A program made the translations under genes and the position numbers. A DNA stretch of 64,000 bases, from positions 6,410 to 70,409 of the forward strand of contig CAWAZW010000003.1 of assembly GCA_963786645.1 (NCBI GenBank), in the 5' to 3' direction. This stretch comes from Blastocatellia bacterium. Lineage in GTDB: Bacteria > Acidobacteriota > Blastocatellia > Pyrinomonadales > Pyrinomonadaceae. Shown one piece after another: positions 184 through 23,390 of the stretch (positions are counted from its first letter, which is position 1; every line of letters begins with the position of its first letter). The notes below the pieces were generated by a model. It ran no database searches, was not told the DNA's origin, and saw nothing but the letters and a program-made list of their open reading frames with translations.

Positions 184-3100
184 ATGAAAAACCACCGGAC
201 GGTCGCAAATGCGTCAGGGCAACTGGCAGCCTTAATTCTGTTGATCGCTGCACTGGCAATTTCCACAGCAGCACAATCAAATAAGGGATCCATAACCGGG
301 ACTGTTAGGGACCAGCAAGGCGCTGCGATCGTGGGGGCCACGGTTGTCGTCACAAATACGGAGACGAACGCCGAACGCACGGTCACCACGAACGACGACG
401 GTGGTTACGACGTACCTCTCCTTGATCCGGGCAACTACCGCGTTGCCGTTAGCCAAACCAACTTCAGCCGCACGATTCAGGAAAACGTAACTGTAAACAC
501 GGATTCGAAGCAGTCAGTTGACGTGGTCCTTCAGGCCGGTGGCGTAGGCGCGGATGTTACGATCACTACTGGGCCGCAACTCATTGAAACTGAAAACAGC
601 GACCGTGGAAGTGTCGTGACGGGACGCGAAGTTACTGAGCTGCCACTTTCCGGCCGCAACTTTACACAGCTTGCGACCCTCACGCCGGGCGTTTCGCGCG
701 TCACTATAGGCACTCTCTCGGACGCTCGTGCGAACAACAACGGTGACCCAAATGCCGGCGGACAGGGACCGGGCGGCGGCGATTCCCGAGGGTCTACGGA
801 AGCGGCACGCTTTGCTCGCTCAGGTGGCGCGGTGCTTTCCGCCAACGGTCAGCGCCCAACCAACAACAACTTTTCAGTTGACGGCGTTGACAATAACGAG
901 CCGCAATTTGGCACTATCGGCGTCTTCGTAAACCCCGATGCTATCGCCGAGTTTAAAGTCACGACGAGCGTTCCTCCTGCGGAAATCGGTCGCGCGGGCG
1001 GCGCGGTGATCAATACGAGCTTTCGTTCGGGCACAAATGAATTTCACGGTTCGCTCTACTATTACGGACAAAATTCCGCGCTTAACGCTTACCATCCCGT
1101 GCTCAAGCGCAAGCGCGTTCGAGGCCCAGGCACGTAACGACCTTGTGATCCCTACTAAGGCCGTCCAGCAGATTCACGAATTCGGCGGAACCATCGGGGG
1201 TCCTATCGTAAAAGACCGATTATTCTTCTTCTTCGACTACCTGGGCGGGCGCAACAACCTGCCGACGCCGCTGTCTTCGACTGTTCCGACGGCGGATGTG
1301 CGCAACGGCATCTTTGGCACAACCTACACCAGCACGAGAGATTGTGGGCGGGGAATTTCTGGTGTCATATGCGACGCTACGACCGGGTTGCCCTTTCCGG
1401 GTGCCACGATTCCTGCGGGTCGCATCAGTCCTCAGACAAGAACGTTCTTTAATTTATTTCCGGACGCGACGGCCGTCAGACTAAATCCGGGCGAGTTTTC
1501 CAACAACTTTTTTTCACAGCGCGACGTTAAGGAAAAGATCGACAACTTTGACATCAAGCTCGATTACAAAGTGAGTGACAATAACTCGTTAAGTGGTCGT
1601 TTCAGCCGGCAAAACTTCTCCGCCATTCGGGGTTCATTCTTTCCACAGGTTCCAGCCGGGTTCGGAGCGGGCGACGAAATCGGGAACACGCGCCAAGTGG
1701 TCATCACCGACACGCATACATTCAGCCCGACAATTCTCAACGAGTTTCGATTTGGGTTTACCAAGATCAATATCGGGATTCTCAACTGCGGCGTTGGCGG
1801 CGCATGCGGTATCAGCGAAACCTTCTCGGCCGACGTGGGAATTCCCAACGTCAACGATGGAACCTTTGAGCAATCTGGCTCAATTTTGACTGGCGGCTTC
1901 GGCAACGGTTTCGTCGAGTTCGCAGGCGATGGTGGTCCATTTATCGTCAACAGCAAGAATCCGTACTTCGCAGATACTCTGACAATAATAAAAGGCAACC
2001 ACTCGATTAAGTTTGGCGGCGAGATGCGCCTTCGCTACCTGGAGACGATTGATGGCGGACGCACCGGCGGCTTAAAGGCTAATCTCGCTTACGCGGATAA
2101 TGGTCCTGCCACCGGTACCAATTTGGCCTGCCCAGTCGCCTCGCAGGGGCCGGCTTTCGTTCCCGCGACCGGGGCTGGATGCTTCGTTGATGTCAACGGG
2201 ATTGCCTTCGGCGGAACCGGACTGGCCATCGCTAACATGTTGGATGTTCGCGTTGCGTCGCTCCAAACTTTCCGTGGAAGTGTTCCTGGCGGAGCGTTCA
2301 ATCTTCGGGGACAAGAATATGGCTTTTTCGTCCAGGACGACTTCAAGGTGAGCGACAAGCTCACACTGAATCTTGGACTTCGTTATGATCTCTTCCCAGC
2401 AGCTACCGAAACTTCGGGACGGCTCGGAAATTACGATCCCGCTTCGCGGACAGTCATGCTGGCTTCCGGCAGTGACGACAGCCTGATCGAGACTGACAAA
2501 AACAATTTCGGCCCGCGTGTTGGTTTCGCCTACGCATTAGGCGCGGAGAGGAACATGGTGATTCGCGGCGGTTACGGATTGCTATACACTCTGGACGCGA
2601 CTGATCGCCCGCCTCTCGTCAATAATCCACCTTTCACCAATAGCATCACTTTTAACAACGCGTTCGATAGTTCGACGCCGCGCAGCGTGTTTAATCTGAC
2701 AACGGGCCCGCCGAACGTGCCCACCATAAGTCCGACCGCTTTGATATCGCCGGGTGGAGCTATCACGGTGTTTCGAATGGATCCTGAGCAGCAGACCGCT
2801 ATGGTCCATCAGTTTAATATTGGTTACCAGGTTCAATTGGGCCGCGACTATGCCTTCGACATAGGATACGTGGGTAACCGGACACGCAATTTGCTTCAAA
2901 CCCTGGACATAGGAGGCAGCGGCACGGCTGAGGCGCGCAACGCTGGTGGCGCTTTCCTTGCTGGTCGGTTCTACACGAACCGAGCTCGGGCGAATTACGA
3001 CGCAGTTCAGATGCAATTGCAGAAGCGTCTCTCTGGAAACATACAGGGCCAGATCTCCTACACCTTCAGTCGAAATCGCGACGACTCAACCGGCGTCTTC

Positions 3101-3743
3101 CAGGGAATTGGCGAGGGACGCGGATCGCAAGGTGGTCCACAAAACCCATTTGATCTTGACGCTGAATACGGAGTCTCTTCACTCGACGTACCGCATCTGC
3201 TTTCGGCTAATGCGATCATCGACGTGCCTTTTGGAAAGGGTCAGCGGTATCATGAATTCCAGTGCCGCAGCCGACAAGATTCTCGGCGGCATACAGTTGA
3301 ATTTCATAGTCAACGGACGTAGCGGCTTTCCGTTCACTGTGGTTGACGGCGATAACGGAAGTCGCCGAGCCAGCCTGATCGGCGACCCATTCGCCAGCGA
3401 CGAACGGGCGCTATCTTGAACCGAGCTGCTTTCGCCCCGGCTGGCGGCCCATGTCCGGGGCCTAACTGTGTTATCAACGCTGCCGGTACAGCCATCCGTT
3501 TCGGCGACCAGCCACGCAATACCTTTAGAGGGCCGGGATGGATTCGAACAGACTTCTCGGTATTCAAAAACACGGGCCTGACGGAGAGTCTGAAGATGCA
3601 GCTTGGGACTGGAGTTCTTTAACCTCTTCAATCAGGGAACTGACACGGTGCCGGACAATAACATCAGAAGCGGTAACTTCGGGTTATTTGACTCAGCGCT
3701 TCCAGCTCGTGTGATTCAATACCGCTTGAAGTTTCTTTTTTAA
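184..3743 (+). CDS. TonB-dependent outer-membrane receptor with N-terminal carboxypeptidase-regulatory-like domain (4 frameshifts as assembled)
   Basis: ORF fragments 88-1137, 1037-3322, 2946-3419 and 3416-3622, plus an unlisted tail ending at TAA 3741-3743, read as one protein. It has a signal peptide (MKNHRTVANASGQLAALILLIAALAISTAAQ) and a CarboxypepD_reg-like segment (GSITGTVRDQQGAAIVGATVVVTNTET). A plug motif (LPLSGRNFTQLATLTPGV) and a C-terminal ...VIQYRLKFLF typical of TBDR barrels follow. The ATG is at 184. Confidence 0.85.
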
Positions 3744-3833
3744 GGTGTGACTGGAGCGGCGCACTCTTCGCCGCGAACCTGGATTTTCGGAAGCGATAGA
3801 GCGGTTGGCTATCGCTTCCCGCGCTTCAACAAA

Positions 3834-3870
3834 ACGACCGGGCCCTACGATGCGAGGACGGTCGTTTTTT
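3834..3870 (+). terminator. Rho-independent terminator after TBDR
   Basis: Stem acgaccg (3834-3840) pairs with cggtcgt (3859-3865) and is followed by a T-run to 3870. A perfect 10-bp hairpin gaagcgatag/ctatcgcttc lies just upstream at 3790-3818. Confidence 0.55.
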
Positions 3871-3886
3871 ATTACAATTGATTCGC

Positions 3887-5473
3887 ATGCCGCCGGCATC
3901 GTTTCCCTCCATGAGAGTTCGTACGCTTAAATTTGTCGTAGTCTGCTTCTGTTTTAGCGGAGCGTCTGTATTCGGCCAGTCCACTGCGTCGCCTTCAGCG
4001 TCCGCGGGCGCCGCGCCGCGTTCCCATGTTGAGCGTTTTAGCAGTCAACAATCGCGGGCGGAGCGGGCTGAGATTGACGCCTCGGCGAAACTCAAAGCCA
4101 ATCCCAACGACGCTGAAACATTGAACGCTCGAGCTTATGCGCGTATGGGCCTGGGCCGTTATCTCGAAGCCGTGGAGGATTTGCGTCGCAGCGTCGCAAT
4201 CAATCCGAAAAATGCCGATTACTACGCTAATCTGGGGTACGCACTTTGGAAGACAGGGAAACATGAGGAGGCTATCGCCGCCGAACGCACTGCTCTCAAG
4301 CTCGATGAAAAACATTTCGCGGCTAACTACCAACTGGGACGCTTCGTTCTACTAAGTGGAGATTCAGGCCAACTGCAAGAAGCGGCTCGCCACTTGCGAA
4401 GGGCGATCGAGATTGATCCACGCCGTTCTGAAGTCCGGTTTGATCTGTTAACGGTCTATCGCAAATTGGAGGATCAGCCCAACGCGATTTCACAATTGAA
4501 TCTTTTGCAGGACGCGCGCCCATCCGACCCGCGCGTTCTTTATGCCGATGGCCTGCTGGCATCTGATCGCGGCGATTTGAATAGCGCGATCACCAGCTTC
4601 AGAGAGGCTTTGCGACTTGACCAGTCACTATACGGAGCCTGGCAGGATCTCGGTCTGGCATTGCTACGACAGCAGAAATGGCCCGAAGCAATTGAGTCGT
4701 TTTCTGAATTGGCGAGAAGACAGGCCGATTCAGTTGAAGGTGCATACCTGCACGCGCTGGCCTTGTTTAATGCGGGTCGCACCTCGGAAGCAGAAAAGGA
4801 AGCAAGGCGAGCACTCCGACTCGACGCGGGGGCTGCCGCTGCCCACACACTTCTCGGAATAATCCTTGCAGCCCGTCGCGGACATGATGCCGAGGCGGCC
4901 GAATCACTTAGCCAGGCCGTCGCGTTGGATCCGAAGAGTTTTGACGCGCATTTTTATCTCGGGCGCGTTCAGTATGCGTTGCAGGATTACTCTGCTGCGG
5001 CAAAGACTTTGAAGGTCGCCACTCAACTGAATAGCAAGCACGCTGAAGCCAGGTTCTTTCTCGGCACGGTGCTCGAAGCGGCTGGAGAAAACTCCGCGGC
5101 GCTTCTGCAATACCAGGAGCTGGCAAAAATCGACCCGCAATCTGCAATCGGTCAGGTAGGTTTGGGGGCGGGCCTGGTAAAGCAGGGCAAGATTGAGGAA
5201 GCGATTGCCGCGCTCCGTCGCGCCGTTTCTCTTGACCCGAAGATATTCGAGGCACACTGGGCGATGGGCCGGGCTTTATTCCTGTCTGAGCGTTTTCCTG
5301 AGGCTGTTGACGCTCTTAAGTCGGCGATTGCTCTGGAACCGAATCGCTCCGACGCACATTACCAATTGGGGCTGGCGCTTAAACGACTGGGCCGTAATGA
5401 AGAAGCTCAACGCGAGTTTGATGTGGTTAAGACTATCAACGCGGAGTTTCGTTCCCGCACGCTGCCAGACTAG
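3887..5473 (+). CDS. secreted tetratricopeptide (TPR) repeat protein
   Basis: Intact ORF 3878-5473. It has a signal peptide (MRVRTLKFVVVCFCFSGASVFGQ; ATG candidates at 3887 and 3911). Many 34-residue TPR units carry the recurring A..Y.LG....G...EA...... A(L/I)..DP pattern. Confidence 0.8.
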   Translation: MPPASFPSMRVRTLKFVVVCFCFSGASVFGQSTASPSASAGAAPRSHVERFSSQQSRAERAEIDASAKLKANPNDAETLNARAYARMGLGRYLEAVEDLRRSVAINPKNADYYANLGYALWKTGKHEEAIAAERTALKLDEKHFAANYQLGRFVLLSGDSGQLQEAARHLRRAIEIDPRRSEVRFDLLTVYRKLEDQPNAISQLNLLQDARPSDPRVLYADGLLASDRGDLNSAITSFREALRLDQSLYGAWQDLGLALLRQQKWPEAIESFSELARRQADSVEGAYLHALALFNAGRTSEAEKEARRALRLDAGAAAAHTLLGIILAARRGHDAEAAESLSQAVALDPKSFDAHFYLGRVQYALQDYSAAAKTLKVATQLNSKHAEARFFLGTVLEAAGENSAALLQYQELAKIDPQSAIGQVGLGAGLVKQGKIEEAIAALRRAVSLDPKIFEAHWAMGRALFLSERFPEAVDALKSAIALEPNRSDAHYQLGLALKRLGRNEEAQREFDVVKTINAEFRSRTLPD

Positions 5474-5492
5474 AAGAGCATTCGATCTGCAG

Positions 5493-7179
5493 ATGACTAG
5501 AAGAGAATCCATCCACAGGCTGGAGTGCCGGGTCAGCGTCGTGACGCGCTTTGCGCGTCATTTGATTTGCTTTGCCATCGTAATTTGTCTTTTCACTTCG
5601 GTTGCCGCCCAACGACGACAAGCTGGCAGCAAGGCCGCCACCTCTCGCGGAGATGGCGGCGTCGCATTGAATGCTACGACGCGGGCCGCGCTTGATTCGG
5701 CCATCGCTGCTTTAGAGGCTAATGATTTAGAGAGCGCCGAACGGGCTGCTCGCCAGGCAGTCAAGTCTGCTCCCCGGTCTCCAATTCCACGTAACGTGCT
5801 CGGCGTCATCCTGGACAAGAAAGGCAGATCAGACGAAGCGCTGGTGGAAATTAACGCAGCGATCCAATTGGACCCCAAGTTTGTCAGCGCCCGAAACAAT
5901 CTCGGACGAATATTGGCGCAGAGTGGCAAGACCCAGGCCGCAATTGCCGAGTTTGAGCGCGTCCTGGCCCTCGACCCAACGCACATCCAGGCCCATTACA
6001 ATCTGGGCGCGTTATATGGAGATGCTGGAGACTTTATTAAAGCCGCCGAACACCTGGCGCGTGCTCGTGCAAGCAACCCGGATGATCCTCAATTGGGACT
6101 GGCATTTTTGAATGTGGCTTACCGGCGCAAACCGAACTACCGAGGCAAAAGCAGCTGCGGACCTGATCGAAAGACAGTATGCCTCCCAGCCGAAAGGTCT
6201 CTTCACTCTGGGAACAGTATTAGCGCAAAACCAACAATACGAACACGCAGTGCGGGTTTTTGAACGCGCAAACAAAGCAATGCCCCACACATTCGAGGTC
6301 CTTTACAACCTTGGAGTGGCGCTCTTTAACCTGGACCGAAATGATGAAGCGGCGAGCGCTTTGGCCGAAGCTGCAGATATCGATACAACCGAGCCGGCAA
6401 CCCACTTCCGTCTTGGGTTGATCGCCAGCACCCGAAACGACCATGCTAATGCCATTGAAGAGTTCAGGCATGCAACTGAGAGAGACGCGAAGAATGCGAC
6501 CTATCATTACATGCTGGGGCGCGAGTATTTTCGGGTCGGTTTTTGGGAAGGGGCCATCAATGAGTATTCGGCGGCAATAAGTCTTGAGCCGAAACAGGCG
6601 GCGTACGTTCTGGCGCGAGCCAACGCGAATTATCGGAAGGGCGAATGGACCGCCTCGGCGATTGATTTCGATTTGGCGGCCGTCCTGGATCCGAAAATAG
6701 AAAACATTGAATACCTTCAGGGCTATGCCCAGAGAGCGGCCGGAAATTTTGATCGGGCTCGCCAACTATTGGAATCTTTTCTCGCTACTAAGCCGGACCA
6801 CCTGGACGCGTTGGCAAGTTTAGGTTATGTCGCCATCGAACAGGGACGACTTGACGAAGCCGAGGCGCCGTTAAAACGCGCGCTAGCTTTGCAGCCCGAC
6901 AGTGTTCCTGTCTTGTATGACTATGCGCGCCTTGCTCTCAAGCGACGCGACTTTGCGGAAGCTGCTGCACGTCTGCAACGAGTAGTCGAACGAAATCCAA
7001 CTCATACACAAGCGCGTTACCAGCTTTTTCTTGTTTATTCACGGATGAAGCAACCTGAGAAAGCCCAGGTTCAATTAGTAGAATTCAAACGGCTTGAGGC
7101 GTTAGAGAGACAAGTAAAGCAGGAGCGCATTCTGGACGAGAAGTTGCGCGCCCAGCAAATGATCGGTCAAGGCCAGTAG
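5493..7179 (+). CDS. TPR repeat protein with N-terminal signal/anchor (1 frameshift near 6120)
   Basis: Fragments 5193-6263 and 6112-7179 are both TPR-rich. The real start is ATG 5493 (MTRRESIH...LICFAIVICLFTSVAAQ), just after the stop of the previous gene. Confidence 0.75.
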
Positions 7180-7192
7180 TAAAGTCGAACTC

Positions 7193-7987
7193 TTGGTGGT
7201 GAATTCCCCGGGTATCACATTTCGGAAGGCTTCCGTTGTTGCGGTCATAGTACTCCTGGCCTGCGCGCCCCATATGGCCCAGCAGGACGTGCTTAAGAAG
7301 CCTTTCCGGCAGTGGACAGAAGCGGAAGTCACAAAGATCCTAAATGATTCGCCTTGGGCCAAAACGCAGGCAATCCGCGTATTGCGCCGCAAGCAAATGC
7401 GCTCCGTGGCGGGCCAGGTTAGCGAGGTGCCCACCGCTTCCTCTCCTGACGGGCATGTTGCTTTAGGAGGCGCCGAGGATGCTGTTGATTACAGGTTCAC
7501 TCTTCGCTTGCGTTCTGCCCGGCCGGTTCGAGAGGCGATTGTGAGGCTGGTCCAACTCGAATCGAAGTATGACCAATTGCCGCCTGAACAGCGGAAGTCA
7601 ATCGATGAGCAAACAAAGCAATTATTAGAATGTAACGAATGCCGGGACAATTATATCGTTAGCGTTGGTTTCGGCTCCCTTAATAGTCAGAACGTCGATT
7701 TGGTTTACGACTGGTTCAAAGGGCAAACAGTCGCCTCTTTGAAAGGATATATTTATCTCGCAAATGAACTTGGTGAGCGACGGGATCTATTCAATTTTAT
7801 TGCGCCCAAAGTTCCGGGCGACGAAGTGTTCTTCTTTTTCGCGCGGCTCGACGAGAATGGAAAGGCCTTAATCACCTCGCGTAGCAAAAAGTTGCTCTTT
7901 CGCATGAGCGACAAGAATGCAGGCTCAGTAACCAATTTCAATCTGGACGTCGCCAAAATGATCCTGGACGATGAGCCAGAGTTCTAA
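7193..7987 (+). CDS. hypothetical secreted protein
   Basis: Intact 264-aa ORF, 13 nt after the previous stop and co-directional with it. It has a signal peptide (VVAVIVLLACAPHMAQQ). I recognise no family. Confidence 0.6.
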   Translation: MVVNSPGITFRKASVVAVIVLLACAPHMAQQDVLKKPFRQWTEAEVTKILNDSPWAKTQAIRVLRRKQMRSVAGQVSEVPTASSPDGHVALGGAEDAVDYRFTLRLRSARPVREAIVRLVQLESKYDQLPPEQRKSIDEQTKQLLECNECRDNYIVSVGFGSLNSQNVDLVYDWFKGQTVASLKGYIYLANELGERRDLFNFIAPKVPGDEVFFFFARLDENGKALITSRSKKLLFRMSDKNAGSVTNFNLDVAKMILDDEPEF

Positions 7988-8022
7988 GGCCCGAAGATTC
8001 GTCATAGCGATTGAAGCGCCTG

Positions 8023-9929
8023 ATGCGAACGTCAAAAAATCCGTCAGCAGTGAATCTCGCGGGCGCCGTCATACTTATTCTTGCCGTTGCCGGCGTATGC
8101 GCGTCTCAACAGCCGGGACCACCCAAAATCATAAAGGTTGAACCCCCTTCATGGTGGGCTGGCCACACAATCAACCCGGTAAGGCTGCTCGTTCGTGGGC
8201 AGAACCTCTCGGGTGCGCGCGTCCGCGCCACCACGCCGACATTGCAAACGTCAGGACTCCGCATTAATGACCGGGGGACTTATCTCTTCGTTAATGTGAG
8301 AGTCAATGCCAATGCCAGGCCTGGGGCCTACCCACTCATCGTGGAAACCGCGACGGGCCGAGCAACAATCTCTTTTCAGGTTGAGCCGCCTCTTAACCCG
8401 CGAACACGGTTCCAGGGAATCAGCGCCGATGACGTGATTTACCTGATCATGCCGGACCGCTTTGCGAATGGCGATCCGTCAAACGACAAACCTGCTGACT
8501 CTCCGCCCGAGGCCAACGATCGTAAGAACGCTCGCGCTTATCACGGCGGCGACCTGCGGGGCATCATCAATCGTCTGCCATATCTGAAAGCACTCGGTGT
8601 CACAGCGCTCTGGTTAACGCCCTGGTATGACAATTGGAACGGCGTAAACAAGTGCGATAAGCCGTGGTGTCCAAACACCTACTACCATGGCTACCACGCT
8701 ATCGATTATTACGCGGTCGAGGATCGCTTCGGCGACATGGCGACGCTACGCGAGCTGGTCGACAAGGCACACGCCTCCGGCATCAAGGTGATTCAGGACC
8801 AGGTGGCGAATCACGTGGGATCGCGCCATCCATGGGTCCACGATCCGCCGCTCGACGATTGGTTTCATGGAACGCTCGCAAAACATTCGCTGAACAAGTT
8901 TCAGAACAGCACTCTCCTCTCGCCACACGCCAATCGCGATGAATTCAGAAACACACTCGACGGGTGGTTCAATGACGATCTGCCTGACATGAACCAGGAA
9001 CAACCTGAGGTTGCACGTTACGAAATTCAAAACTCGTTGTGGTGGATTGGAATCACCGGGCATAGACGGCGTGAGGCAGGACACGATCCAGTACATGCCG
9101 CGGTTTTTTATACGCGATCTGTCAGATGCGCTCCATCGCCAGTATCCGCGAATGTGGATGGTGGGTGAAGTATTTGAACGTGATGCCGCGCAGACCGCGT
9201 TTTTTATCGGGGGGACATAGAGGGTGGGACGGGATAGATACCAGGCTCGATTCAGTGTTCGATTTCTCGTTATGGAATACGTCTTTACAAGTCTTTACCA
9301 ACAAGTTACCCGTGCGGGCGTTGCGTGATCAATTGAAGTATGACGCTCTTTACCCTGAGCCCTTGCGCGTAACTACACTACAGAACAACCACGACACGGA
9401 CCGTTTCATGTCTTTGGAAGGCGCAACACTCGAAGGCGCAATGCTGCACCTCGCGTTTACTCTGAGCGTACGTGGGATTCCGCAACTCTACTACGGCGAA
9501 GAGATCGCGATGGAAGGCGGCCACGATCCCGATAACCGTCGCGACTTTCCGGGCGGGTTCCCCGGCGATGATCGCAACGCTTTCGATTCTGGCGGCCGCA
9601 GAGCGAAAGAGCAAAAGATGTATGAGTGGACGCGCGCGTGGATACGTCTGCGCGCGGAGCATCCGGCGCTGAGGCAAGGAAAATTGATCGACCTCTTTTA
9701 CGACGACGATACGTATGTCTTCGCGCGACAGGTTCAAACTGAAACCATCATCGTTGCTTTTAATCGAGCGGATAAGAAGAGGGAAATAACCATTCCGGCA
9801 GCGGCTATTGGGATACGCAGTGGTGCCACACTGGCCCCGCTTTTGAGAACGAGTGTGGCTGTTCCAATCGTGAACGGTAGCGCCACGCTAACAGTTGCTG
9901 CTCGAACGGCAGCCGCGTTCAAGTATTAA
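8023..9929 (+). CDS. GH13 alpha-amylase family enzyme with cyclomaltodextrinase-type N-terminal domain (2 frameshifts)
   Basis: Fragments 8011-9168, 9011-9220 and 9126-9929. The N-domain reads KVEPPSWWAGHTINPVRLLVRGQNL. GH13 regions are DRFANGDPSND, GVTALWLTPW, GIKVIQDQVANH, GIDGVRQDT, MVGEVF and NHDTDRF. The junctions lie at GGG 9058-9060 and G6 9209-9214. Confidence 0.85.
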
Positions 9930-11508: not shown

Positions 11509-11572
11509 TGGGCTGCCGGAGGCCTTGAAAAGACTTAGAACGGATCCACGAAATTACACGAACGGGCAACGC

Positions 11573-13538: not shown

Positions 13539-14258
13539 ATGAAGACAAAACCCTTATCCGAGCAGGTCGCTATCGTAACCGGCGGAGGCAGTGGGATAGG
13601 CCGAGCCTTCACCGAGGGGCTCGCCACAGCCGGCGTTAGAGTCGTGATTGCTTCGCGACGAACTGACGTCTTACGCCGGACGGCAGACGAGTTGAATCAG
13701 AAACTAAATACTGAGCTGGTGTTTCCATACGAGTTTGACATTCGCGATCCAGAGCGCGTGGACTTGCTCGTTAGTGATGTCTTCGCGCGGTGGAAAAGTA
13801 TTGATGTGCTGGTAAACAACTCCGGTCTCGCTGTGCCAGAGACGGCCGAGAAGATCACGGACGAAGGTTGGGACACAGTCATAGAGACTAACCTGCGCGG
13901 TGCTATGCAACTCGTCAGGGCTGTGCTGCCGCACATGACTGCTAATGACTTTGGCGACATCGTGAACGTCTCCTCGCAGGCTGGGAAGCATGGGTACGCA
14001 GACGTGCCTTCTTACTGCGCATCGAAGTTTGGACTGCTTGGTTACGCTGAAGCAGTGCGCGACCACGTTCGCAAAACGGGAGCAAACGTGCGGGTGTTCA
14101 ATTTCTGCCCTGGGTTGGTGGATGTTGTAAACACTCAACTAGAGCAAGCGCCTCACGATGGATTCATTCATGTTGAAAACCTGGCGAAGACATTGATGTA
14201 TGTTCTATCGCTTGAGCGCAATGTGGTGTTGGAAGATATCAACATGTATGCGCGCTAG
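13539..14258 (+). CDS. short-chain dehydrogenase/reductase (SDR) family oxidoreductase
   Basis: It has the TGGGSGIG cofactor motif, NNSG, and the catalytic S...YCASK. Confidence 0.85.
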   Translation: MKTKPLSEQVAIVTGGGSGIGRAFTEGLATAGVRVVIASRRTDVLRRTADELNQKLNTELVFPYEFDIRDPERVDLLVSDVFARWKSIDVLVNNSGLAVPETAEKITDEGWDTVIETNLRGAMQLVRAVLPHMTANDFGDIVNVSSQAGKHGYADVPSYCASKFGLLGYAEAVRDHVRKTGANVRVFNFCPGLVDVVNTQLEQAPHDGFIHVENLAKTLMYVLSLERNVVLEDINMYAR

Positions 14259-14371: not shown

Positions 14372-14424
14372 GCGGCCTTGCCGGAAGGGCATAGCCACTT
14401 CCGCACATCAAGCGGCATAGCCGC
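14372..14424. repeat. REP-like hairpin element (GCGGC-N3-GCCGC family, degenerate copy)
   Basis: Left arm gcggccttgccgg (14372-14384) and right arm gcggcatagccgc (14412-14424). The preceding gatagcggc is shared with the copy at 49311-49351. Confidence 0.4.
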
Positions 14425-14458
14425 GATCCTATTTGCAAGTTCACATTCTGGAAGGACC

Positions 14459-15865
14459 ATGCCAATGCAAAAACCACGCTTAAGTTTCTGGCAGATTTGG
14501 AACATGAGTTTTGGTTTCCTCGGCATCCAGTTTGGGTGGGGCTTACAAATTGCCAACATGAGCCCGATCTACAAATACCTGGGGGCCGAAGAAAGCACGC
14601 TTCCCTATCTTTGGCTTGCCGGTCCGATCACAGGTCTGATCGTGCAGCCCATAGTAGGAGCAATGAGTGACCGAACGTGGAACCGCTTCGGACGGCGTCG
14701 CCCTTACTTTCTTGCCGGTGCGATCCTCGCCAGTATCGCGCTTTTCTTCATGCCCAACTCCGGCGCGATATGGATGGCTGCCGGTCTGCTCTGGATTCTC
14801 GACGCCAGTATCAACATCACTATGGAGCCCTTCCGGGCCTTCGTCGCCGATAAGCTACCCGAGGAACAGCGCACACTCGGCTTCGTCATGCAAAGCTTCT
14901 TCATCGGCATCGGTCAGACGCTTGCAAATGCGTTGCCGATTATCCTTACGGCGGTCGGTGTGACGGGCGTGCTGGCTAGCGGCATTCCGGTAACGACCGA
15001 GTACGCTTTTAAGATTGGAGCGGTCGTCTTCCTGCTGGCTGTATTGTGGACAGTGGTGACCACTAAAGAGTACCCGCCCGATGACATAGCCGCATTTGAG
15101 CGGATGAAACGTGAACGCCGTGGAGTGCTTGGTGGTTTTGTCGAGATCTTTTCATCGATCAAGGAAATGCCGAAGACGATGAAGCAGCTCGCCGTCGTGC
15201 AGTTCTTTACCTGGTTTGCGTTGCCATGCATGTGGCAGTTTTTCGGCTTGGCTGTCGCGCGACAAGCATTCGGTGCCACCGATTCAAACACGCCGGGATT
15301 CAAAGAGGGAACGGAATGGGGCGGTCTTTGCTTTGCGGTCTATAACATTGTTTGCTTTGCGATTGCCTTCCTGCTGCCGGCTCTTGCTAAAGCAACGAGC
15401 CGTAAGACCGTTCACGCAATCGCCCTTTTTTGCGGTGGCCTTGGCCTTATTTCGGTCTATTTTATCCAGAATAAGTACGGGTTTTGGCTTTCAATGGCCG
15501 GCGTTGGTATTGCCTGGGCTTCAATCCTCTCGATGCCTTACGTCATGCTATCTACTGCCGTGCCGCCGATGCGTATGGGGATATATATGGGTGTCTTCAA
15601 CCTTTTCATAGTAATTCCTCAAGTGGTCATGTCGTTCGTCATGCCGCCGCTCATCAATAACGTTATTGGTGACGATCCGGTCAGGGTAGTAATGATCGGC
15701 GGGGCGAGCCTTCTGGTGGCAGCGCTCTCAGTCTTCATTGTTGATGATTCAAACAAAGCTGTCCCTGTCAGTAGCGTTCTGGAAGCCGACGAACATGAAC
15801 TACTGACGACTGTGGGCACAGCGCAACCGGTACCCAGCACCGGGCTGATCGACAAGGAAGGTTAG
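14459..15865 (+). CDS. MFS/GPH-type glycoside transporter (SLC45 / sucrose-maltose symporter-like)
   Basis: Twelve hydrophobic segments. [15 protein letters not shown] and [16 protein letters not shown] are typical of sucrose/maltose H+ symporters. The start is ATG 14459. Confidence 0.8.
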
Positions 15866-15887
15866 GGCGTTTGCCGGAGGAAGAAAC

Positions 15888-17297
15888 ATGAATCGCGCTT
15901 TGAAATTGTTTCTCGGGACCTTGGTACTGCTGGTTGGATCAACAGGAGACGCTCGGGCTTGCGTTTGCGGTATGAGCTTTCTTCAGTGGCAGCCCTGTTC
16001 TGCTTATTGGAACGCAGATGTGGTCTTCGCCGGCACGGTTACTGAAGTTGGACCAATGATTCCGGTCAAGGGCAGCGATGGTAAGTCATTTTCTGCAAAC
16101 GGGCGCTTCACTCGCTTCAGGGTAGACGACGCGTTTCGCGGCGTAACCGGAGTTGTAGTTGAGACCTACGAACACGGAACCTCATGCGACTACCATTTCA
16201 AACAGGGCGAACAATACTTTGTTTACGGCAACCGCGATCCTAAAGACGGACGGATCTATGTAGGCAGTTGCACCGCAACTAAGTCCCTGGCTCATTCAGC
16301 GGCGGATCTTGATTTTGCTCGGGGCGCAGCGCGTGGCGATTCAATGCCCAGCCTTATAGGCGCAATAAATCGCGAGATACGGCAGGACGCCGCTTCGTAT
16401 CGCAGCCAAAAACCGATGGAGAGCGTCGAAGTGGCCGTGGAAGGAAATGGACGATCGTTGACAGCAAAAACGGATGCTGAAGGTCGCTTTAGATTTTATG
16501 GGCTCGCCGCCGGGAAATATCGCGTCACAGCGAGGACATCTCGTGAGCTCCGTAGTCTTTATGGGCCTGAATCCGTCGAAGTGACCATTCGCGATGGACG
16601 CTGCAGCGGGGCAAGCTTCACAATTACTTCCTTGTCCCCTGTCACCGGTACCGTGTTGGACCATACGGGCAAACCCGCGCAGGTCCGTTTGAATCTGGTG
16701 CTCCTGGATGAAGCGGGTGAGGAGACGCAGATGGCGGAAGGCAGTGTCGAATCCTACTCAACGCCTGATGGGGTTTATAAGTTTGATTGGGTGGCCCCCG
16801 GCCGCTACCGGCTGGCAGTTAACGCCAAAAGCCAGCCCGGAAGTTCTGACCCTCCTTACCCACGTGCGTACCTGCCTGGAGTCATCGATCCATCACAAGC
16901 AATCATCATCGAGATAACAGAAAGACAGGGATACGAAGCGCCGGAGTTTCGACTGCCGCCCCCGCTTGCGGAGGCGACCGTTGAGGGTATTGTGTTTCTT
17001 CCCGACGGTTCGCCAGCAATCGGAGCATTAATCTCACTCGAATTCACTGAGCGTGAGTGGTTTGAAACGTTTAGTACCGATAGCCAGGGGCGTTTCAATC
17101 TCAAAGTTTTCGCCGGTTACAAGTACCTGATATCAGCAGAACTCCGCAAAGAAGTTGCCGGCAAGTGGATCGCCACGCACTCTGCCCCAATTGAAGTGGT
17201 CGCCGGAGACACTACCGAACAGTTGAAACTAACAGTAAACCGAACGGGTTTCTATAGGCCCGCATTTGTGAGGCAGAAGCGCGAGGTGCCCAAATGA
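15888..17297 (+). CDS. secreted protein: N-terminal TIMP/NTR-like domain followed by carboxypeptidase-regulatory-like beta-sandwich repeats
   Basis: Intact 469-aa ORF. The signal peptide ends ...GDARA, then CVCGMSFLQWQPCSAYWNADVVF. Repeats such as TDAEGRFRFYGLAAGKYRV, TPDGVYKFDWVAPGRYRL and TDSQGRFNLKVFAGYKY follow. The stop overlaps the next start as ATGA. Confidence 0.7.
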   Translation: MNRALKLFLGTLVLLVGSTGDARACVCGMSFLQWQPCSAYWNADVVFAGTVTEVGPMIPVKGSDGKSFSANGRFTRFRVDDAFRGVTGVVVETYEHGTSCDYHFKQGEQYFVYGNRDPKDGRIYVGSCTATKSLAHSAADLDFARGAARGDSMPSLIGAINREIRQDAASYRSQKPMESVEVAVEGNGRSLTAKTDAEGRFRFYGLAAGKYRVTARTSRELRSLYGPESVEVTIRDGRCSGASFTITSLSPVTGTVLDHTGKPAQVRLNLVLLDEAGEETQMAEGSVESYSTPDGVYKFDWVAPGRYRLAVNAKSQPGSSDPPYPRAYLPGVIDPSQAIIIEITERQGYEAPEFRLPPPLAEATVEGIVFLPDGSPAIGALISLEFTEREWFETFSTDSQGRFNLKVFAGYKYLISAELRKEVAGKWIATHSAPIEVVAGDTTEQLKLTVNRTGFYRPAFVRQKREVPK

Positions 17298-18721
17298 GGA
17301 TCCTGCCGCTCAACAGACTAGCCGTTTCGCTCGCGTTAGTTTTTTCTCTAAGTCTAACTACGCCGCCACAGTCCCGCCCTGCGGATGACGTTTCGAAAAA
17401 GTCCGCCAGGACCGCCCGCGAATGGGTGCGCGACGGCGTCATTTACGAAATCTATCCGCGTGCTTTTTCGCAGCAGGGAAACTTCAACGGGATTACCGCT
17501 CGGCTTGATGACTTGAAGGAACACGGCGTGACTATCCTTTGGTTGATGCCCATACATCCAATTGGCCAACTAAAGAAGAAGGGAACCATCGGTAGCCCGT
17601 ACGCAGTGCGCGACTATTACGGAATCAATCCTGACTACGGCTCGAAAGAAGATCTTAAGCGTTTAATCTCCGAGTCTCACAAGCGCGGTATGAAGGTGAT
17701 CATTGATATCGTCGCCAATCACACCTCCTGGGACAGTGTGTTGATGAAGCATCCGGAATTCTACAAGCGCGACGCGAAAGGCAACATCACCTTTCCCTAC
17801 GATTGGTATGACATCGCCGCCCTTGACTACAGCAACGCGCAGTTGCGTCGTTATATGATCGACATGTTGAAGTACTGGATTCGTGAGTTTGACCTGGATG
17901 GTTTTCGTTGTGACGTCGCCGGCGAAGTCCCAACGGATTTTTGGGAAAACGCGCGCGCCGAATTGGACCAAATCAAACCCGACATTTTCTTGCTGGCCGA
18001 AGCACACAAAGCTGAGTTACTGGTGAAGGCGTTTGAGCTGGACTACTCCTGGCCGATGCACAGCGCGTTAACCGATGTGTTGCAGGGACGTAAGAGTGCC
18101 GGTGAGATTCGCGCGGCGTGGGAAGACGAAGTCAAGAAGTGGCCGCGGAATTCCCTGCACATGCGGTTTTCGGATAATCACGACGAGCGTCGTGCGATTG
18201 CGCGTTTCGGCGAACGTGGCGCATTGGCGGCCTCGGCGTTGGTATTTACTTTGGATGGCGTGCCGCTCATTTACAACGGAATGGAGGCGGGCGACACGAC
18301 TGAATCAGGCGCGCCGGCGCTATTTGAAAAGCTGCCAATCTTCTGGCCTTTTGCGGAACGCCGGCCGGAGTTTCCGAGATTCTACAAGCAGATGACTGCG
18401 TTGCGACGTTCGAGCAATGCGCTGAGGCGTGGTTCGCTCGAGTGGTTACATAATTCCGACGAGACGCGCATCGTTAGTTACCTGCGGCGCACACGGAATG
18501 AAGAAGTGTTGGTTGCTATCAACCTCTCGAGTCAACGGTTTGTGGGCTCGATTGAAGTACCGGCTCAGCCGGGCTTTAAGGACGTCACTCCCGACGTGGG
18601 CGCGCCGTTACCGCCTGACGTGTTCAATCCGGATCGTACCGCGAGAAACCGGACAGTAGGCTTGCCGGCGCTGGCCTTAGAAGCGTGGGGTTACCGCATC
18701 TTCCGTCGAGAGATAAAGTAG
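17294..18721 (+). CDS. secreted GH13 alpha-amylase family enzyme
   Basis: Intact ORF with a signal peptide. GH13 regions are GVIYEIYPRAF, VTILWLMPIHP, VIIDIVANHTS, GFRCDVAGEVP, LLAEA and SDNHDE. Confidence 0.85.
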   Translation: MRILPLNRLAVSLALVFSLSLTTPPQSRPADDVSKKSARTAREWVRDGVIYEIYPRAFSQQGNFNGITARLDDLKEHGVTILWLMPIHPIGQLKKKGTIGSPYAVRDYYGINPDYGSKEDLKRLISESHKRGMKVIIDIVANHTSWDSVLMKHPEFYKRDAKGNITFPYDWYDIAALDYSNAQLRRYMIDMLKYWIREFDLDGFRCDVAGEVPTDFWENARAELDQIKPDIFLLAEAHKAELLVKAFELDYSWPMHSALTDVLQGRKSAGEIRAAWEDEVKKWPRNSLHMRFSDNHDERRAIARFGERGALAASALVFTLDGVPLIYNGMEAGDTTESGAPALFEKLPIFWPFAERRPEFPRFYKQMTALRRSSNALRRGSLEWLHNSDETRIVSYLRRTRNEEVLVAINLSSQRFVGSIEVPAQPGFKDVTPDVGAPLPPDVFNPDRTARNRTVGLPALALEAWGYRIFRREIK

Positions 18722-18760
18722 GTTTTAGCTGTTGCCAGGGATGTAAAGAACAAGACCACA

Positions 18761-20893
18761 TTGTCTAGACCTCTTTTTATTTTCGTGATGTTGTCAGCAG
18801 CTCTGTTCGGACAAGCAGCCAACCGGCAAGCGCCGGGCGCTCCCGGACAGGATGCTCATTGGCCCAGCGCAGCCAAAAACGGTTTCGGTACATCCGATAC
18901 GATCGCCTCAAAAGTATGGTTCACACTTAATAACGGGGTAATGACCGAGGTGTTTTACCCAAGACTTGATGTGCCCAATTCGCAAACTCTCCAGTTGATT
19001 ATCTGCAACCAACGAGGATGTCAGATTGAGGCAGAAGACTCGGTACACGAAATTCGAGTCCTTGATTCGCGGTCCCTTTCCTTTCAGCAAATCAATAAGG
19101 CAAAGGATGGCTCCTATGTCATCACCAAGACCTACGCCACTGATCCTGAGCGCGCTACTATTCTGATCCAAGTTGACATCGCTTCCGCGCCGGGCGGTGA
19201 TATCTATGTCTTCTTCGACCCATCGCTTAATAACAGCGGGATGCATGACACGGGTTGGACAAAGAGCAGTGCCTTGCTTGCTGTAGATGCAAATGTCGCA
19301 TCAGCGCTGATTTCCAGCAGTGGTTTTTCGGAGACGGCCAATGGCTTCCTGGGTAGCAGCGATGGTTTGACCCAGCTAAAACAAAAAGGCGTTATCACAG
19401 ACAAGTATGAACGAGCGGAAAATGGAAACGTCGTTCAGGTCGCGCGAGTAGCCCGAGCGAGAAGCTTCACACTCGCGCTTGGATTTGGTGCCAAGCCAGA
19501 GGAAGCCTTGATGAACGCGCAAGCTTCACTGGCTAAAGGTTTCGCGCGGGTAAGTAGCGACTACGACGCCGGGTGGCACGCCTATCTGCGATCCTTGCGG
19601 CGGGTGGAGCCAAGGTATGAGCGGCAGTTCAACATGTCGGCAATGGTTTTGAAAGCTCTGGAAGACAAAACCTATCGTGGCGCGATGGCTGCTTCACCCT
19701 CGGTTCCGTGGGGTGGTGGACCAAACGCTAATGAAGCAACGGTCAGCGGCTATCATGCGGTTTGGTCGCGCGACCTTTATCACGTCAGCACTGCTTTCCT
19801 GGCAATGGGCGATCGGGCTACGGCAGATCGCGCGCTCAACTATCTCTTCAGGACACAGCAAAAGCGCGACGGTAGTTTTCCGCAGAATTCGTGGATTGAT
19901 GGCAGGACAATTGGCAACGGAATTCAGATGGACCAGGTGGCGTTTCCTATATTGCTTGCCCACCAACTCGGTCGCAACGAGCGCGACACCTGGGTGAAAC
20001 ACATTAAGCCTGCGGCAGATTTCATAGTTCGCAGCGGCCCAACCACAGAACAGGACCGCTGGGAAGAGGAATCGGGATATTCACCGGCCACCATTGCCGC
20101 GCAGATTGCGGGGCTCGTTTGTGCGGCCCGCATCGCGATGGTGAATGGCGATGCCGCGTCGGCCACCACCTATCTTAATAAGGCCGATGAATGGGCGATT
20201 GGCCTGGATAGTTGGACTGTTACTACGACTGGCCCACATATGAAGGGAAAATACTACCTTCGCATAACTCAAGGCGATCCAAACGCATCGGCGGCGCTCG
20301 AAATAAACAGCGGCGGCGGCCTTTATGACCAGCGACTAATTGTCGATGCAGGGTTTCTGGAACTGGTCCGGTTAGGAATCAGAAAAGCGTCCGACACGAC
20401 GATTGTTGGTTCGTTAAGGGTAGTCGACGAATTGATTAAGGTGAACACACCCAACGGCCCGGCCTGGTATCGCTATAACCACGACGCGTATGGCGAAGGC
20501 CCGGATGGCCGGGACTATGACGCTCGCACCGGCAAAGGACGCCTGTGGACGTTGCTTACCGGCGAAAGAGGCGAGTATGAGTTGGCGCGGGGGAACTTTG
20601 GCGCTGCACATCGCAGTCTCGACGCCATGATGAAGTTTGCAAACGATGGGCTTATGATTCCCGAGCAGGTCTGGGACCAGCGGGAATCGCCGCGGCCAGA
20701 CCTTCGAATTGGTGAAGGGACAGGCTCCGCGACGCCCTTGGCCTGGTCCATGGCACAGTTTGTTCGGCTCGCACTAAACGTTCGTGCTAAACGTAATCTC
20801 GAAACACCCGCAGTTGTGCGCGCGCGTTATTTGCACGCACCAGGCAACAAACCCGATCGACTGCGCTTTCGAAAATCTTCTCCAAACAGGTAA
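18761..20893 (+). CDS. GH15 glucoamylase (glucan 1,4-alpha-glucosidase) with bacterial N-terminal domain
   Basis: Intact 710-aa ORF with a TTG start and a signal peptide. It has GYHAVWSRDLY, DRWEEESGYSPATIAAQIAGL and LMIPEQVWD. Confidence 0.85.
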   Translation: MSRPLFIFVMLSAALFGQAANRQAPGAPGQDAHWPSAAKNGFGTSDTIASKVWFTLNNGVMTEVFYPRLDVPNSQTLQLIICNQRGCQIEAEDSVHEIRVLDSRSLSFQQINKAKDGSYVITKTYATDPERATILIQVDIASAPGGDIYVFFDPSLNNSGMHDTGWTKSSALLAVDANVASALISSSGFSETANGFLGSSDGLTQLKQKGVITDKYERAENGNVVQVARVARARSFTLALGFGAKPEEALMNAQASLAKGFARVSSDYDAGWHAYLRSLRRVEPRYERQFNMSAMVLKALEDKTYRGAMAASPSVPWGGGPNANEATVSGYHAVWSRDLYHVSTAFLAMGDRATADRALNYLFRTQQKRDGSFPQNSWIDGRTIGNGIQMDQVAFPILLAHQLGRNERDTWVKHIKPAADFIVRSGPTTEQDRWEEESGYSPATIAAQIAGLVCAARIAMVNGDAASATTYLNKADEWAIGLDSWTVTTTGPHMKGKYYLRITQGDPNASAALEINSGGGLYDQRLIVDAGFLELVRLGIRKASDTTIVGSLRVVDELIKVNTPNGPAWYRYNHDAYGEGPDGRDYDARTGKGRLWTLLTGERGEYELARGNFGAAHRSLDAMMKFANDGLMIPEQVWDQRESPRPDLRIGEGTGSATPLAWSMAQFVRLALNVRAKRNLETPAVVRARYLHAPGNKPDRLRFRKSSPNR

Positions 20894-20898
20894 AGCAC

Positions 20899-23390
20899 TT
20901 GAACCAAACAATTCGCCTATTATGTCTTGCCGCACTTCTGGTGCTGACAACTGCTTCGGCAAAGTCAGTTCTGGCCCAGGACATCACCACGCTCGAAAAA
21001 ATTGGACCGGTTGCAAGCTTTACCAAAACAGAACGTGGTGTCACATTCAATTGCCGCGACAATTCCCAGGTGCAAGTCTCGGTTTTAGCCGCTGATTTAA
21101 TTCGCGTTCGAGTGTCTTTCGCCAAGCCCATTCCAACGAAAGACCACTCCTGGGCAATTGCCAGGAACGATTGGTCGCCGACGCGTTGGAGCATCACCGA
21201 AACTGCCGAGGCAGTCGTCATAAGCACCGATGAAATCGAGGTCTTAGTGCGTCGCATGCCGTTGCTGATTGAATTTCGCGACGCCAAGACACATGCGCCG
21301 ATCAATTCCGACGAGCAGCCAATGGCTTACGATGCGAAAGGGCTGCTGAAGAATATGTTGTTTGACCCCAGTGCGGGAATGTTTGTGGCGGCATCGAAGA
21401 AACTTGGCTTCGATGAACATTTTTACGGACTCGGTGAAAAAGCTGCGCGACTCGACAAGCGTCGTAGCTCTTTCATTAACTGGAATTCCGACACGCCGGG
21501 ATACACCGAAGGCAAAGATCCGATTTACCAAACCATTCCGTTCTACATCGGACTCACGGGACCGCACTGCCTACGGAATTTTCTTTGACAACAGCTACCG
21601 GAGTTATTTTGACTTCGGAAAATCTTCGCAGCAGCGCGCGTGGTTTGGAGCTGAGGGCGGCGAGCTAAACTACTACTTTTTCTATGGGCCATCGATAAAG
21701 AAGATTCTAAGCCGCTACGCTGACCTGACTGGTCACATGCCGATGCCACCTTTGTGGGCGCTGGGCCACCAGCAGAGCCGTTGGAGTTATTACCCCGACA
21801 CGATGGTCGAGGAAGTTGTGAGGCAATATCGCCAGCGAGATTTACCGCTTGATGTGGTGCACCTCGACATCGATTACATGCAAGGCTACCGGGTGTTCAC
21901 CTGGGACAGAAGTCGCTTTCCAAGTCCCAAATCGTTAGCTGAGAAACTCGGCAGGCAGGGGGTGAAGTTAGTAACGATCGTCGATCCGGGAGTCAAGCAT
22001 CAACCTGTTCCACCGAGTACTGGGCGCGTTACTTCCATAACTCCGGAACTGGAGCCTCAGGAGCAGCGCTATTACGTCTTCGACCAGGGACTCGAGCGCA
22101 AGTACTTTCAACGTCGGAAGAATGGCGACTTGTTTGTCCCCAGGGTGTGGCCCGGCGAAAGCGTATTCGTGGACTACACATTGCCCGACGCTCGCTCATG
22201 GTGGGGCGCTCTGCACCGCGCTTACCTTGACCACGGCGTCGCCGGTATTTGGACCGACATGAACGAGCCGTCTGACTTTGTCGATCAAACCGGCAAGAAT
22301 CAAATTGACGTGGTGAGTCATGACGAAGGGGAAAAGTCGACGCACGCAAAAAACCGGAACGTGTTTGCCCTTCTGATGGCCCGAGTCAACCTACGAGGGG
22401 CTGCAGAAACTTCGGCCGAACGAGCGTCCTTACGTCATCACGCGCGCCGGGTATGCCGGCATTCAGCGGTATTCGACCATGTGGACCGGCGACACCAATA
22501 GCACATGGGAATCGCTGCAGCTCAGTGTTCCGATGTTTGCAACGCTTGGACTTTCGGGGGAACCATTTGTCGGCGGCGATGTCGGCGGATTTATTGGCCG
22601 CGGCAACGGCGAGTTGCTGGTGCGTTCGTATCAGGTGAGTTTTCTCGCGCCCTTTTGTCGCAATCACAAGGTGATCGACGGTTACGATCAGGAGCCGTGG
22701 CGCTTTGGAAAACACTACGAAGACATCATTCGCAAGTATCTGAAGTTGCGGTATCAGTTGCTGCCCTTTCTCTACACCACCCTGGAGGAGGCACACCGGA
22801 CTGGGGTGCCGCCGTTTCGCCCGCTGGTGCTGAACTACCAGGACGATCCCAATACTTACAATCTCGACGATCAGTTCATGATCGGAAACGATCTGCTGGC
22901 GGCGCCTGTGTTGAAGCCAGACGTGACCAGGCGGTTGGTCTATTTGCCGAAAGGTGTTTGGTACGATTACTGGACCAACAAGAAGTATGAAGGCGGCACG
23001 ACAATAACCGTCGACGCTCCACTGGAGACCGTGCCGCTGTTCGTGCGAGGTGGCGCCATTATTCCGAGCGGCCCCCGATTGAATTTTGTGAACGAAAAGC
23101 CGGTCGACCCGATCACATTCAGCATCTATCCTGACAGTAATGGCGCCGCGTCAACTTTACTCTACGAAGATGACGGGATCAGTCCGGCTTATGAACAGCA
23201 GGGCTTTCGCAGAACAACCATCAACGTCGAACGGTCTGCAACCGGCTACACGGTGACGATGGGAGCTCCATCAGGTCTTTATAAACCTGGCCCACGAAAT
23301 TTTGCCTTTGTAATAAAGTCAGAAAGCAGGGTGCCCCGGGTGACGACGGTTCCGGATGATGGCACTCCCCGCAAACTTACGATCAGATAA
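20899..23390 (+). CDS. GH31 alpha-glucosidase (2 frameshifts)
   Basis: Fragments 20899-21588, 21362-22501 and 22479-23390. Motifs are WNSDTPGY, DVVHLDIDYM, GIWTDMNEPS, WTGDTNSTWESL and FCRNH. Confidence 0.85.

Follow-up and report, generated by a model that had tools for sequence, protein, structure and literature searches.

The closest described counterparts of the locus analyzed here are the starch utilization system of Bacteroides (Sus, susRABCDEFG) and the SusD-less carbohydrate uptake loci of Xanthomonas and Caulobacter. As in our locus, a TonB-dependent transporter (TBDT) with a CarboxypepD_reg-like extension heads the co-directional alpha-glucan locus in Sus, periplasmic enzymes of the GH13 and GH31 types (GH, glycoside hydrolase) are part of the system and a helical-repeat protein, encoded right after the transporter, co-evolves with it. 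The susC and susD genes are tightly coupled and, to our knowledge, SusD accompanies essentially every SusC. The loci for carbohydrate utilization containing a TBDT (CUT) of Xanthomonas, reportedly described by Blanvillain in 2007, are said to combine a TBDT, carbohydrate-active enzymes (CAZymes), an inner-membrane transporter and a regulator without SusD, and MalA of Caulobacter, reportedly described by Neugebauer in 2005, is said to be a maltodextrin TBDT. We know of no conserved accessory genes for tetratricopeptide repeat (TPR) proteins in either system. Here, we analyze a locus of a soil Blastocatellia bacterium (Acidobacteriota, Pyrinomonadaceae; GCA_963786645.1) in which the gene for a TonB-dependent receptor (TBDR) is followed by genes for two exported TPR proteins, TPR1 and TPR2. 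It occupies positions 184–23390 of a stretch of 64,000 nucleotides, from now on referred to as the window, which corresponds to C3:6410–70409 (C3 being contig CAWAZW010000003.1) of a 3.6 Mb assembly of 19 contigs that is 75% complete.

Family calls for the window genes were based on the open reading frame listing and on Pfam and NCBIfam scans. All locus genes lie on the + strand in the same direction, and the gene content and order proposed in an earlier reading of the letters alone (the original prediction) were borne out by the Pfam and NCBIfam scans. A TBDR, enzymes of families GH13, GH15, GH31 and GH77, a symporter of the major facilitator superfamily (MFS, GPH type) and an upstream ROK regulator are found in one cluster, and this gene content places the locus within the broader class of CUT-type loci that lack SusD. 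The family assignments support its identification as a TBDR-anchored, SusD-less utilization cluster for alpha-glucans (maltodextrin, starch or glycogen), with maltodextrin as a likely substrate, as for Caulobacter MalA. It differs from the Xanthomonas CUT and Caulobacter MalA systems in that its receptor appears to belong to the Oar/OMP_b-brl_4 class and nearly all of its hydrolases are exported.

The comparison with Sus is more divided. The original prediction had stated that no SusD/RagB homolog is present, and this extends to the whole genome: at 75% completeness, neither PF07980 (SusD_RagB) nor PF14322 (SusD-like_3) gave a match, with both controls positive in B. thetaiotaomicron. It had also stated that the gene order mirrors that of the Bacteroides sus genes. 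The outline is indeed alike, and one of five tested features of polysaccharide utilization loci (PULs) of the SusC/SusD type, namely three GH13, a GH77, a GH15 and a GH31 gene co-directional with the TBDR gene and separated by short gaps, is present. The other four, a SusD gene, a SusD fold, a lipoprotein and near-obligate pairing, are absent, and a 264-amino-acid exported protein of the locus could not be assigned as SusE/F-like. Instead of SusD/RagB, two partners are encoded, of which TPR1 is a 13-repeat TPR solenoid and not a lipoprotein; a hairpin lies between the TBDR gene and its partners, such pairing is limited to roughly 10% of the TBDRs of this class, and the regulator is of the ROK type where Sus has SusR. 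We give an even chance to the reading that this is a SusD-less alpha-glucan locus in which TPR1 and TPR2 would be periplasmic accessories of this particular TBDR subtype.

Conservation of the receptor and its TPR neighbors

The TBDR gene (184–3743, +) encodes a signal peptide, a CarboxypepD_reg N-terminal extension (PF13620, 71–73 bits), a weak Plug match and an OMP_b-brl_4 barrel (620 bits over residues 280–1179). Its end at 3743, with the usual ..LKFLF, lies beyond the end of the longest open frame, and the gene is spread over at least three frames; the intact orthologue in the related locus L004 encodes 1186 amino acids and is 85–91% identical. No sequence relatives of the receptor were found in the PDB at E<0.01. 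A signal peptide, PF13620 N-terminal extension, plug and large barrel make up the plan of the Oar subclass (PMC6434023), and Oar of Myxococcus xanthus has this plan (PMC6434023), which the receptor described here, with its weakly detected Plug, appears to share. Oar has been implicated in protein export, whereas the present receptor sits in a catabolic glycan locus, and a TPR partner is not described for Oar (0 occurrences of 'TPR' in PMC6434023).

TPR1 (3911–5473, +) is separated from the TBDR gene by a gap of 167 nt that contains a terminator-like stem-loop followed by TTTTTT (3831–3872, +). The stem and T-run are kept in L003, L004 and L001, the last of which has a TBDR only 56% identical and a changed loop. 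TPR2 (5493–7179, +), of about 560 amino acids with a signal peptide, a TPR array and a long C-terminal helix, follows directly. Gaps are 13–23 nt from TPR1 to the first GH13 gene (GH13a) and 13–70 nt from TPR1 onward, except before the MFS gene. Because of the hairpin, the TBDR may differ in expression level from the genes behind it. The hairpin may also act as an attenuator, adjusting TBDR expression relative to that of the downstream genes.

More than 500 TPR1 orthologues of about 515 amino acids were identified at 55–89% identity, which is unusually conserved for a TPR protein. Two contig contexts were compared with six further orthologous loci and twelve loci from genomes sampled at the family and phylum level. 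The order TBDR-TPR1-TPR2-GH13 is kept in about 20 loci from Pyrinomonadaceae, other Blastocatellia and one further class (L001–L008, L024–L026, L028, L029, L031, L033 and L034, with L033 coming from another class of the phylum), and where contigs reach far enough, the first GH13 gene is usually followed by GH77, GH13, SDR (short-chain dehydrogenase) and MFS genes. The locus itself is accessory: TPR1 orthologues are present in 4 of 16 sampled genomes of the family, and none was found in two genomes of the same genus that are 98–99% complete.

Pairwise protein identities among nine loci revealed that receptor and TPR proteins vary together. The correlation with TBDR identity was r = 0.93 for TPR1 and r = 0.89 for TPR2, and TPR1 and TPR2 correlated with each other at r = 0.98, whereas TBDR identity was not correlated with that of GH13a (r = 0.04) or GH77 (r = 0.01), two enzymes that correlate with each other (r = 0.78). 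TPR identity likewise hardly follows GH13 identity (r ~0.2). The high TBDR-TPR correlations are due to a deep split between variant A (L001, L004, L024–L026) and variant B (L028–L031), across which TBDR, TPR1 and TPR2 are each about 38% identical while the enzymes are 60–75% identical. L030 encodes a TPR2-like protein only, together with two GH13 enzymes, and in L032 the TBDR is of a third type (33% identical), with a GH13 gene directly behind it and no TPR gene within 15 kb. Taken together, the two variants, L030 and L032 indicate that the presence and sequence of the TPR proteins follow the transporter and not the enzymes. As TBDR, TPR1 and TPR2 co-vary and the enzymes do not, the three proteins likely form one uptake module, and this co-variation, the strongest evidence available, points to a functional partnership between the TBDR and the TPR proteins.

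The frequency of such pairs was determined in a census of the neighbors of OMP_b-brl_4 TBDR genes, using a TPR hidden Markov model built from the TPR1 alignment (score of at least 30 bits) and covering the source genome and five near-complete genomes, of which three belong to its family, one to its class and one to its phylum. In the source genome, 4 of about 18 TBDR loci have a TPR gene downstream on the same strand, compared with about 0.25 expected from its roughly 45 TPR genes. The other five genomes contain 5 such cases among 75 TBDRs, all in one genome, and further a TPR gene upstream of 1 TBDR and a convergent one downstream of 3. Pooled, 9/93 TBDRs have a downstream TPR gene against 1/93 with an upstream one (p ~0.02), where about 1.3 would be expected (P ~1e-5). 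The association of TBDR and TPR genes is beyond chance and extends to roughly a tenth of the TBDRs. A varied set of genes lies downstream of the other TBDRs; the largest recurring group among them is that of TPR genes, with only 4 of 60. A universal TPR partner of CarboxypepD_reg TBDRs was rejected on the count of 5 in 75, all in a single genome. A phylum-wide census at E<=1e-80 recovered too few TBDRs to be useful. The adjacency that the original prediction had expected across related genomes is thus conserved at the starch locus, in its roughly 20 occurrences, but holds for only 9 of the 93 TBDRs of the class. TPR genes in convergent (tail-to-tail) orientation were seen just downstream of TBDR genes in L068, L074 and L084 and at C1:67966–68961 and C14:23066–25099.

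The window contains a second Oar-type TBDR gene (41671–45290, end approximate, +), split into about five frames, whose Plug match of 24.6 bits is just above the Pfam cut-off. It is followed at 45302–52587 (+) by genes for a TPR protein (583 amino acids), a CRTAC1-like FG-GAP/UnbV_ASPIC propeller, another TPR protein (325 amino acids) and a second CRTAC1-like propeller. The recurrence of a TBDR followed by a TPR protein, claimed for 41818–47517, is real, with the TBDR and 583-amino-acid TPR genes spanning 41671–47053. Two further CRTAC1-like (FG-GAP/UnbV_ASPIC) genes and a ROK gene precede the TBDR of the starch locus at C3:1200–6250, with the same arrangement in L004.

Fold and export signals of TPR1 and TPR2

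TPR1 and TPR2 match TPR families only in Pfam and NCBIfam. For TPR1, the scores are best for TPR_11, TPR_2 and TPR_16 (E 1e-47 to 1e-59), and its family profile, when compared with the PDB, retrieved canonical TPR proteins only among the top 60 matches. It contains 13 repeats of 34 residues each (two of 35–37) with L7, G8 and A20. An AlphaFold2 model (mean predicted local distance difference test, pLDDT, of 90; predicted template modeling score, pTM, of 0.79) consists of one uninterrupted superhelix spanning residues 57–527, whose 27 helices make up 13 TPRs and their caps. The best Foldseek match was the TPR domain of OGT (template modeling score, TM, of 0.68), followed by SPINDLY, APC/C subunits and designed consensus TPRs. 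SusD was absent from the top 50 Foldseek and the top 60 PDB profile matches of TPR1, and the model, a pure canonical TPR solenoid, shows no loop-rich ligand domain. Conserved residues of TPR1 cluster on helix A and so on the concave face; as a clue to the ligand they were set aside, being mostly generic TPR consensus (D/E2, aromatic 5, Q/N6, L7, G8, R9) that does not separate peptide from glycan binding. Membership in the Slam family (N-terminal TPR and DUF560 barrel) was likewise rejected, given that only TPR families match and that the model stays helical throughout, up to residue 527, and lacks a barrel; TPR_Slam, at 61 bits, is just one among over 30 generic TPR matches.

Alignment of 66 TPR1 orthologues showed N-terminal Sec signals of the signal peptidase I (SPase-I) type with a hydrophobic core ending in ..A|Q. 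No cysteine is conserved in these 66 sequences and none is ever found in a lipobox context; TPR2 and the 264-amino-acid protein resemble TPR1 in their signals, with no lipobox found. As an SPase-I signal without a lipobox makes the periplasm the default location, rather than that of a surface lipoprotein, TPR1 and TPR2 are probably periplasmic. Together, the Pfam, PDB profile and fold searches and the absence of a lipobox led us to reject homology or analogy of the TPR proteins to SusD. In variant-A TPR1 proteins, a short variable linker downstream of the cleavage site leads to an almost invariant RSHVERF motif, which precedes the first repeat. The motif lies in a region (window 3911–4070, TPR1 residues 1–54) that is modeled with low confidence, and it may serve as a docking peptide. 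A general docking function of RSHVERF was rejected, since it occurs in variant-A TPR1 only, with a degenerate form in L033, and neither variant B nor other TPR proteins encoded next to TBDRs contain it.

Possible roles of the TPR proteins

We hypothesize that alpha-glucan oligosaccharides cross the outer membrane through the Oar-type TBDR and that five enzymes with signal peptides (three GH13, GH15 and GH31) would degrade them outside the cytoplasm. The MFS symporter would import the products, the cytoplasmic 4-alpha-glucanotransferase MalQ (GH77) would process them and the upstream ROK-family helix-turn-helix (HTH) regulator would control expression. TPR1 and TPR2, Sec-exported and inherited with the TBDR, would act in the periplasm as accessory partners. 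They may dock on the periplasmic face of the TBDR or on its N-terminal extension and hand the glycan chain to periplasmic enzymes; alternatively, they may scaffold these enzymes in the periplasm. Such a role would loosely be the reverse of that of the periplasmic TPR domains in the exporters PgaA, BcsC, AlgK and PelB. These also have long canonical TPR solenoids in the periplasm, where those described here are predicted to be located, and also work with an outer-membrane barrel and a polysaccharide, but there the TPRs are fused or dedicated to an export porin and serve outward transport, while here they are separate proteins of an import and catabolic locus. NCBIfam returned sub-threshold matches to PgaA and BcsC models, a likeness that is no more than generic for TPRs. 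A more far-reaching proposal, which we put forward only tentatively, is that this Oar-type subclass of Acidobacteriota forms a three-protein unit in which two dedicated TPR proteins bind the transporter and either glycan or periplasmic enzymes, taking the role of SusD or of binding proteins elsewhere, and that such units recur in glycan loci of different specificity.

Several findings weigh against a transporter-bound periplasmic role. The co-variation rests on one deep split and so represents one or two evolutionary events and not 36 independent pairs, and some 90% of the TBDRs of this class lack a neighboring TPR gene. The terminator-like hairpin sets the TBDR gene apart, grouping the TPR genes transcriptionally with the enzymes, and in the second locus each TPR gene pairs with a CRTAC1-like propeller gene and not with the TBDR gene. 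A signal peptide by itself is compatible with onward export, for example by type II secretion. Finally, with a Plug match of only 14 bits (E 0.065), TonB dependence of the receptor is itself putative.

The original prediction had cast the TPR proteins as possible glycan-binding partners of SusD-less TBDRs in the SusD position. Their partnership with the TBDR gains from conservation and co-variation, and the claim that such a role has not been described agrees with a literature search in which no report of TBDR-TPR pairing in Acidobacteriota was located. Their fold, their signal type and the non-obligate pairing do not support an equivalence to SusD or a role as a glycan-binding lid. Surface caps that are functional analogues of SusD would explain the conserved gene position directly after the TBDR, co-variation with it as of SusD with SusC and the lack of any SusD family match in the genome, and the scaffold of SusD, too, is made of TPR-like helices (PMC2954216). 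We nonetheless regard such caps as unlikely: the signals are of the SPase-I type with no conserved lipobox, a route to the cell surface is not evident, the solenoid lacks a loop-rich ligand-binding half and has no SusD among its top PDB sequence or fold matches, a hairpin separates TBDR and TPR1, and the partner is optional, being found with 9 of 93 TBDRs and missing in L032. Signal type, fold and non-obligate pairing make this SusD-like role the least favored of those that tie the TPR proteins to the transporter.

It is similarly improbable, in our judgment, that the TPR proteins are secretion adaptors which deliver cargo (the GH13 enzymes here, the CRTAC1-like proteins in the second locus) to a barrel that also exports exoproteins, as Myxococcus Oar does with PopC. 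The Oar-like architecture of the TBDR with its PF13620 N-terminal extension, the nature of canonical TPRs as protein-protein interaction modules, the TPR-CRTAC1 cassette found twice in the second locus and the match of two TPR proteins with two signal-peptide-bearing Cyc-maltodext_N GH13 enzymes are all in keeping with adaptors, but TPR identity does not track GH13 identity, L030 has one TPR protein with two GH13 enzymes and L032 none, PopC is a special case in having no signal peptide and export by acidobacterial Oar-like TBDRs would itself be conjectural. The short gaps between TPR1 and GH13a, compared with the hairpin-containing gap after the TBDR, and the TPR-CRTAC1 pairing would suit periplasmic scaffolds or chaperones of exported enzymes, or general envelope proteins, whose adjacency to the TBDR reflects operon organization only; this has a small chance of being right, given that the TPR proteins vary in step with the TBDR rather than with the enzymes, that their presence follows the TBDR type and that TPR genes are enriched directly downstream of TBDRs. 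Periplasmic TPR proteins commonly serve outer-membrane protein biogenesis, and factors for assembly or stability of the large barrel (comparable to BamD, BepA or pilotins), or modulators of TonB coupling, would also be co-inherited with a TBDR subtype; weak Pfam similarity to TPR_Slam and BepA-type models was seen among many generic TPR matches. We consider such factors very unlikely, as most of the paralogous TBDRs, though equal in size, do without a partner of this kind, no specific family cut-off was reached and the need for two different TPR proteins would be unexplained.

Acidobacteriota rank among the most abundant bacteria in soil, and each of their genomes encodes dozens of Oar-type TBDRs. 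For the question of how acidobacterial TBDRs capture and hand on polysaccharides without SusD, the co-inherited module of one TBDR and two TPR proteins gives a testable entry point on a tractable substrate, starch or maltodextrin. If the TPR proteins are partners of the transporter, they would represent a new class of TBDT accessory protein and improve the prediction of PUL-like loci outside Bacteroidota; if they are not, the locus would be an ordinary SusD-less alpha-glucan cluster.

Enzymes, regulator, assembly frameshifts and side genes

The enzymatic part of the locus is encoded on the + strand downstream of the TPR genes and starts with a GH13 enzyme (Cyc-maltodext_N and alpha-amylase domains, 8011–9929), the GH77 4-alpha-glucanotransferase MalQ (9952–11508) and a second GH13 enzyme of the Cyc-maltodext_N type (11525–13470). 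The SDR (13539–14258), identified in the Pfam and NCBIfam scans, and the inner-membrane MFS/GPH-type sugar symporter (14378–15865) follow. The next gene (15888–17297) encodes an exported protein which had been called TIMP-like and which instead contains three CarboxypepD_reg-like β-sandwich repeats. A third GH13 enzyme (alpha-amylase/cyclomaltodextrinase-like, 17294–18721), a GH15 glucan 1,4-alpha-glucosidase (18761–20893; TIGR01535, 751 bits against a cut-off of 742) and a GH31 alpha-glucosidase (20899–23390) complete the locus. All three GH13 enzymes, GH15 and GH31 have signal peptides, and among the hydrolases only GH77 has none; counting the SDR as well, GH77 and the SDR are the only ones expected in the cytoplasm. 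As all hydrolases except GH77 carry signal peptides, depolymerization is predicted to take place outside the cytoplasm. The signals imply that the glucan is broken down almost completely, to glucose or maltose, in the periplasm or extracellularly and that the products are then taken up by the MFS symporter. The ROK/NagC-like HTH gene directly upstream of the TBDR gene (C3:5131–6250), found in the same place in L004, probably regulates the locus.

Five of the 14 locus genes, TBDR, TPR2, the GH13 genes at 8011 and 11525 and GH31, are not open as assembled. There are at least three frame changes in the TBDR gene, one extra base near 6122 in TPR2 (split into 5493–6263 and 6112–7179), one change in each of the two GH13 genes (near 9130 and near 12500) and two in GH31, which is spread over three frames. 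An alignment of the first 8 kb with L004, a relative from a short-read metagenome-assembled genome (MAG) with 84% DNA identity, located uncompensated single-base insertions or deletions (indels) at ~1120, 3250, 3386–3414 and 6122. L004 and other relatives have unbroken copies of all five split genes, and intact TPR2 orthologues are represented by P0121 and P0122. Genome-wide, splits affect about 11 of 18 TBDR loci, and the ROK and CRTAC1-like genes upstream are broken as well. Because splits occur across the genome, they are likely to reflect genome-wide indel error, which is much more probable than decay of this locus, and a pseudogenized locus was judged unlikely. Single-base frameshifts occur about every 2 kb, for example at window positions 1037–1137, 6112–6263, 9126–9168, 12496–12523, 21362–21588, 22479–22501 and 41671–44986. 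Long-read indel error is a likely source and may also lower the completeness estimate of 75%.

The exported 264-amino-acid protein (7193–7987, +), encoded between TPR2 and the first GH13 gene, has no Pfam or NCBIfam match, and its confident mixed alpha/beta model has no significant neighbor in the PDB (best E 0.017). Its gene is missing from many orthologous loci and is placed elsewhere in L026. A role as a SusE/F-like binder was rejected on the absence of a family match, a lipobox and a PDB neighbor and on its patchy presence in the loci. The family is restricted to Pyrinomonadaceae-like genomes, and its only paralogue in this genome (C14:22235–23041) is also located directly downstream of a TBDR gene (C14:18757–21861). 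Two related starch loci contain an inserted gene for a multiheme cytochrome (c554-like) with fused TPRs, which precedes a GH13 gene and comes after the 264-amino-acid gene in L004 (L004:14079–16322) and after the first GH13 gene in L002 (L002:11557–13857).

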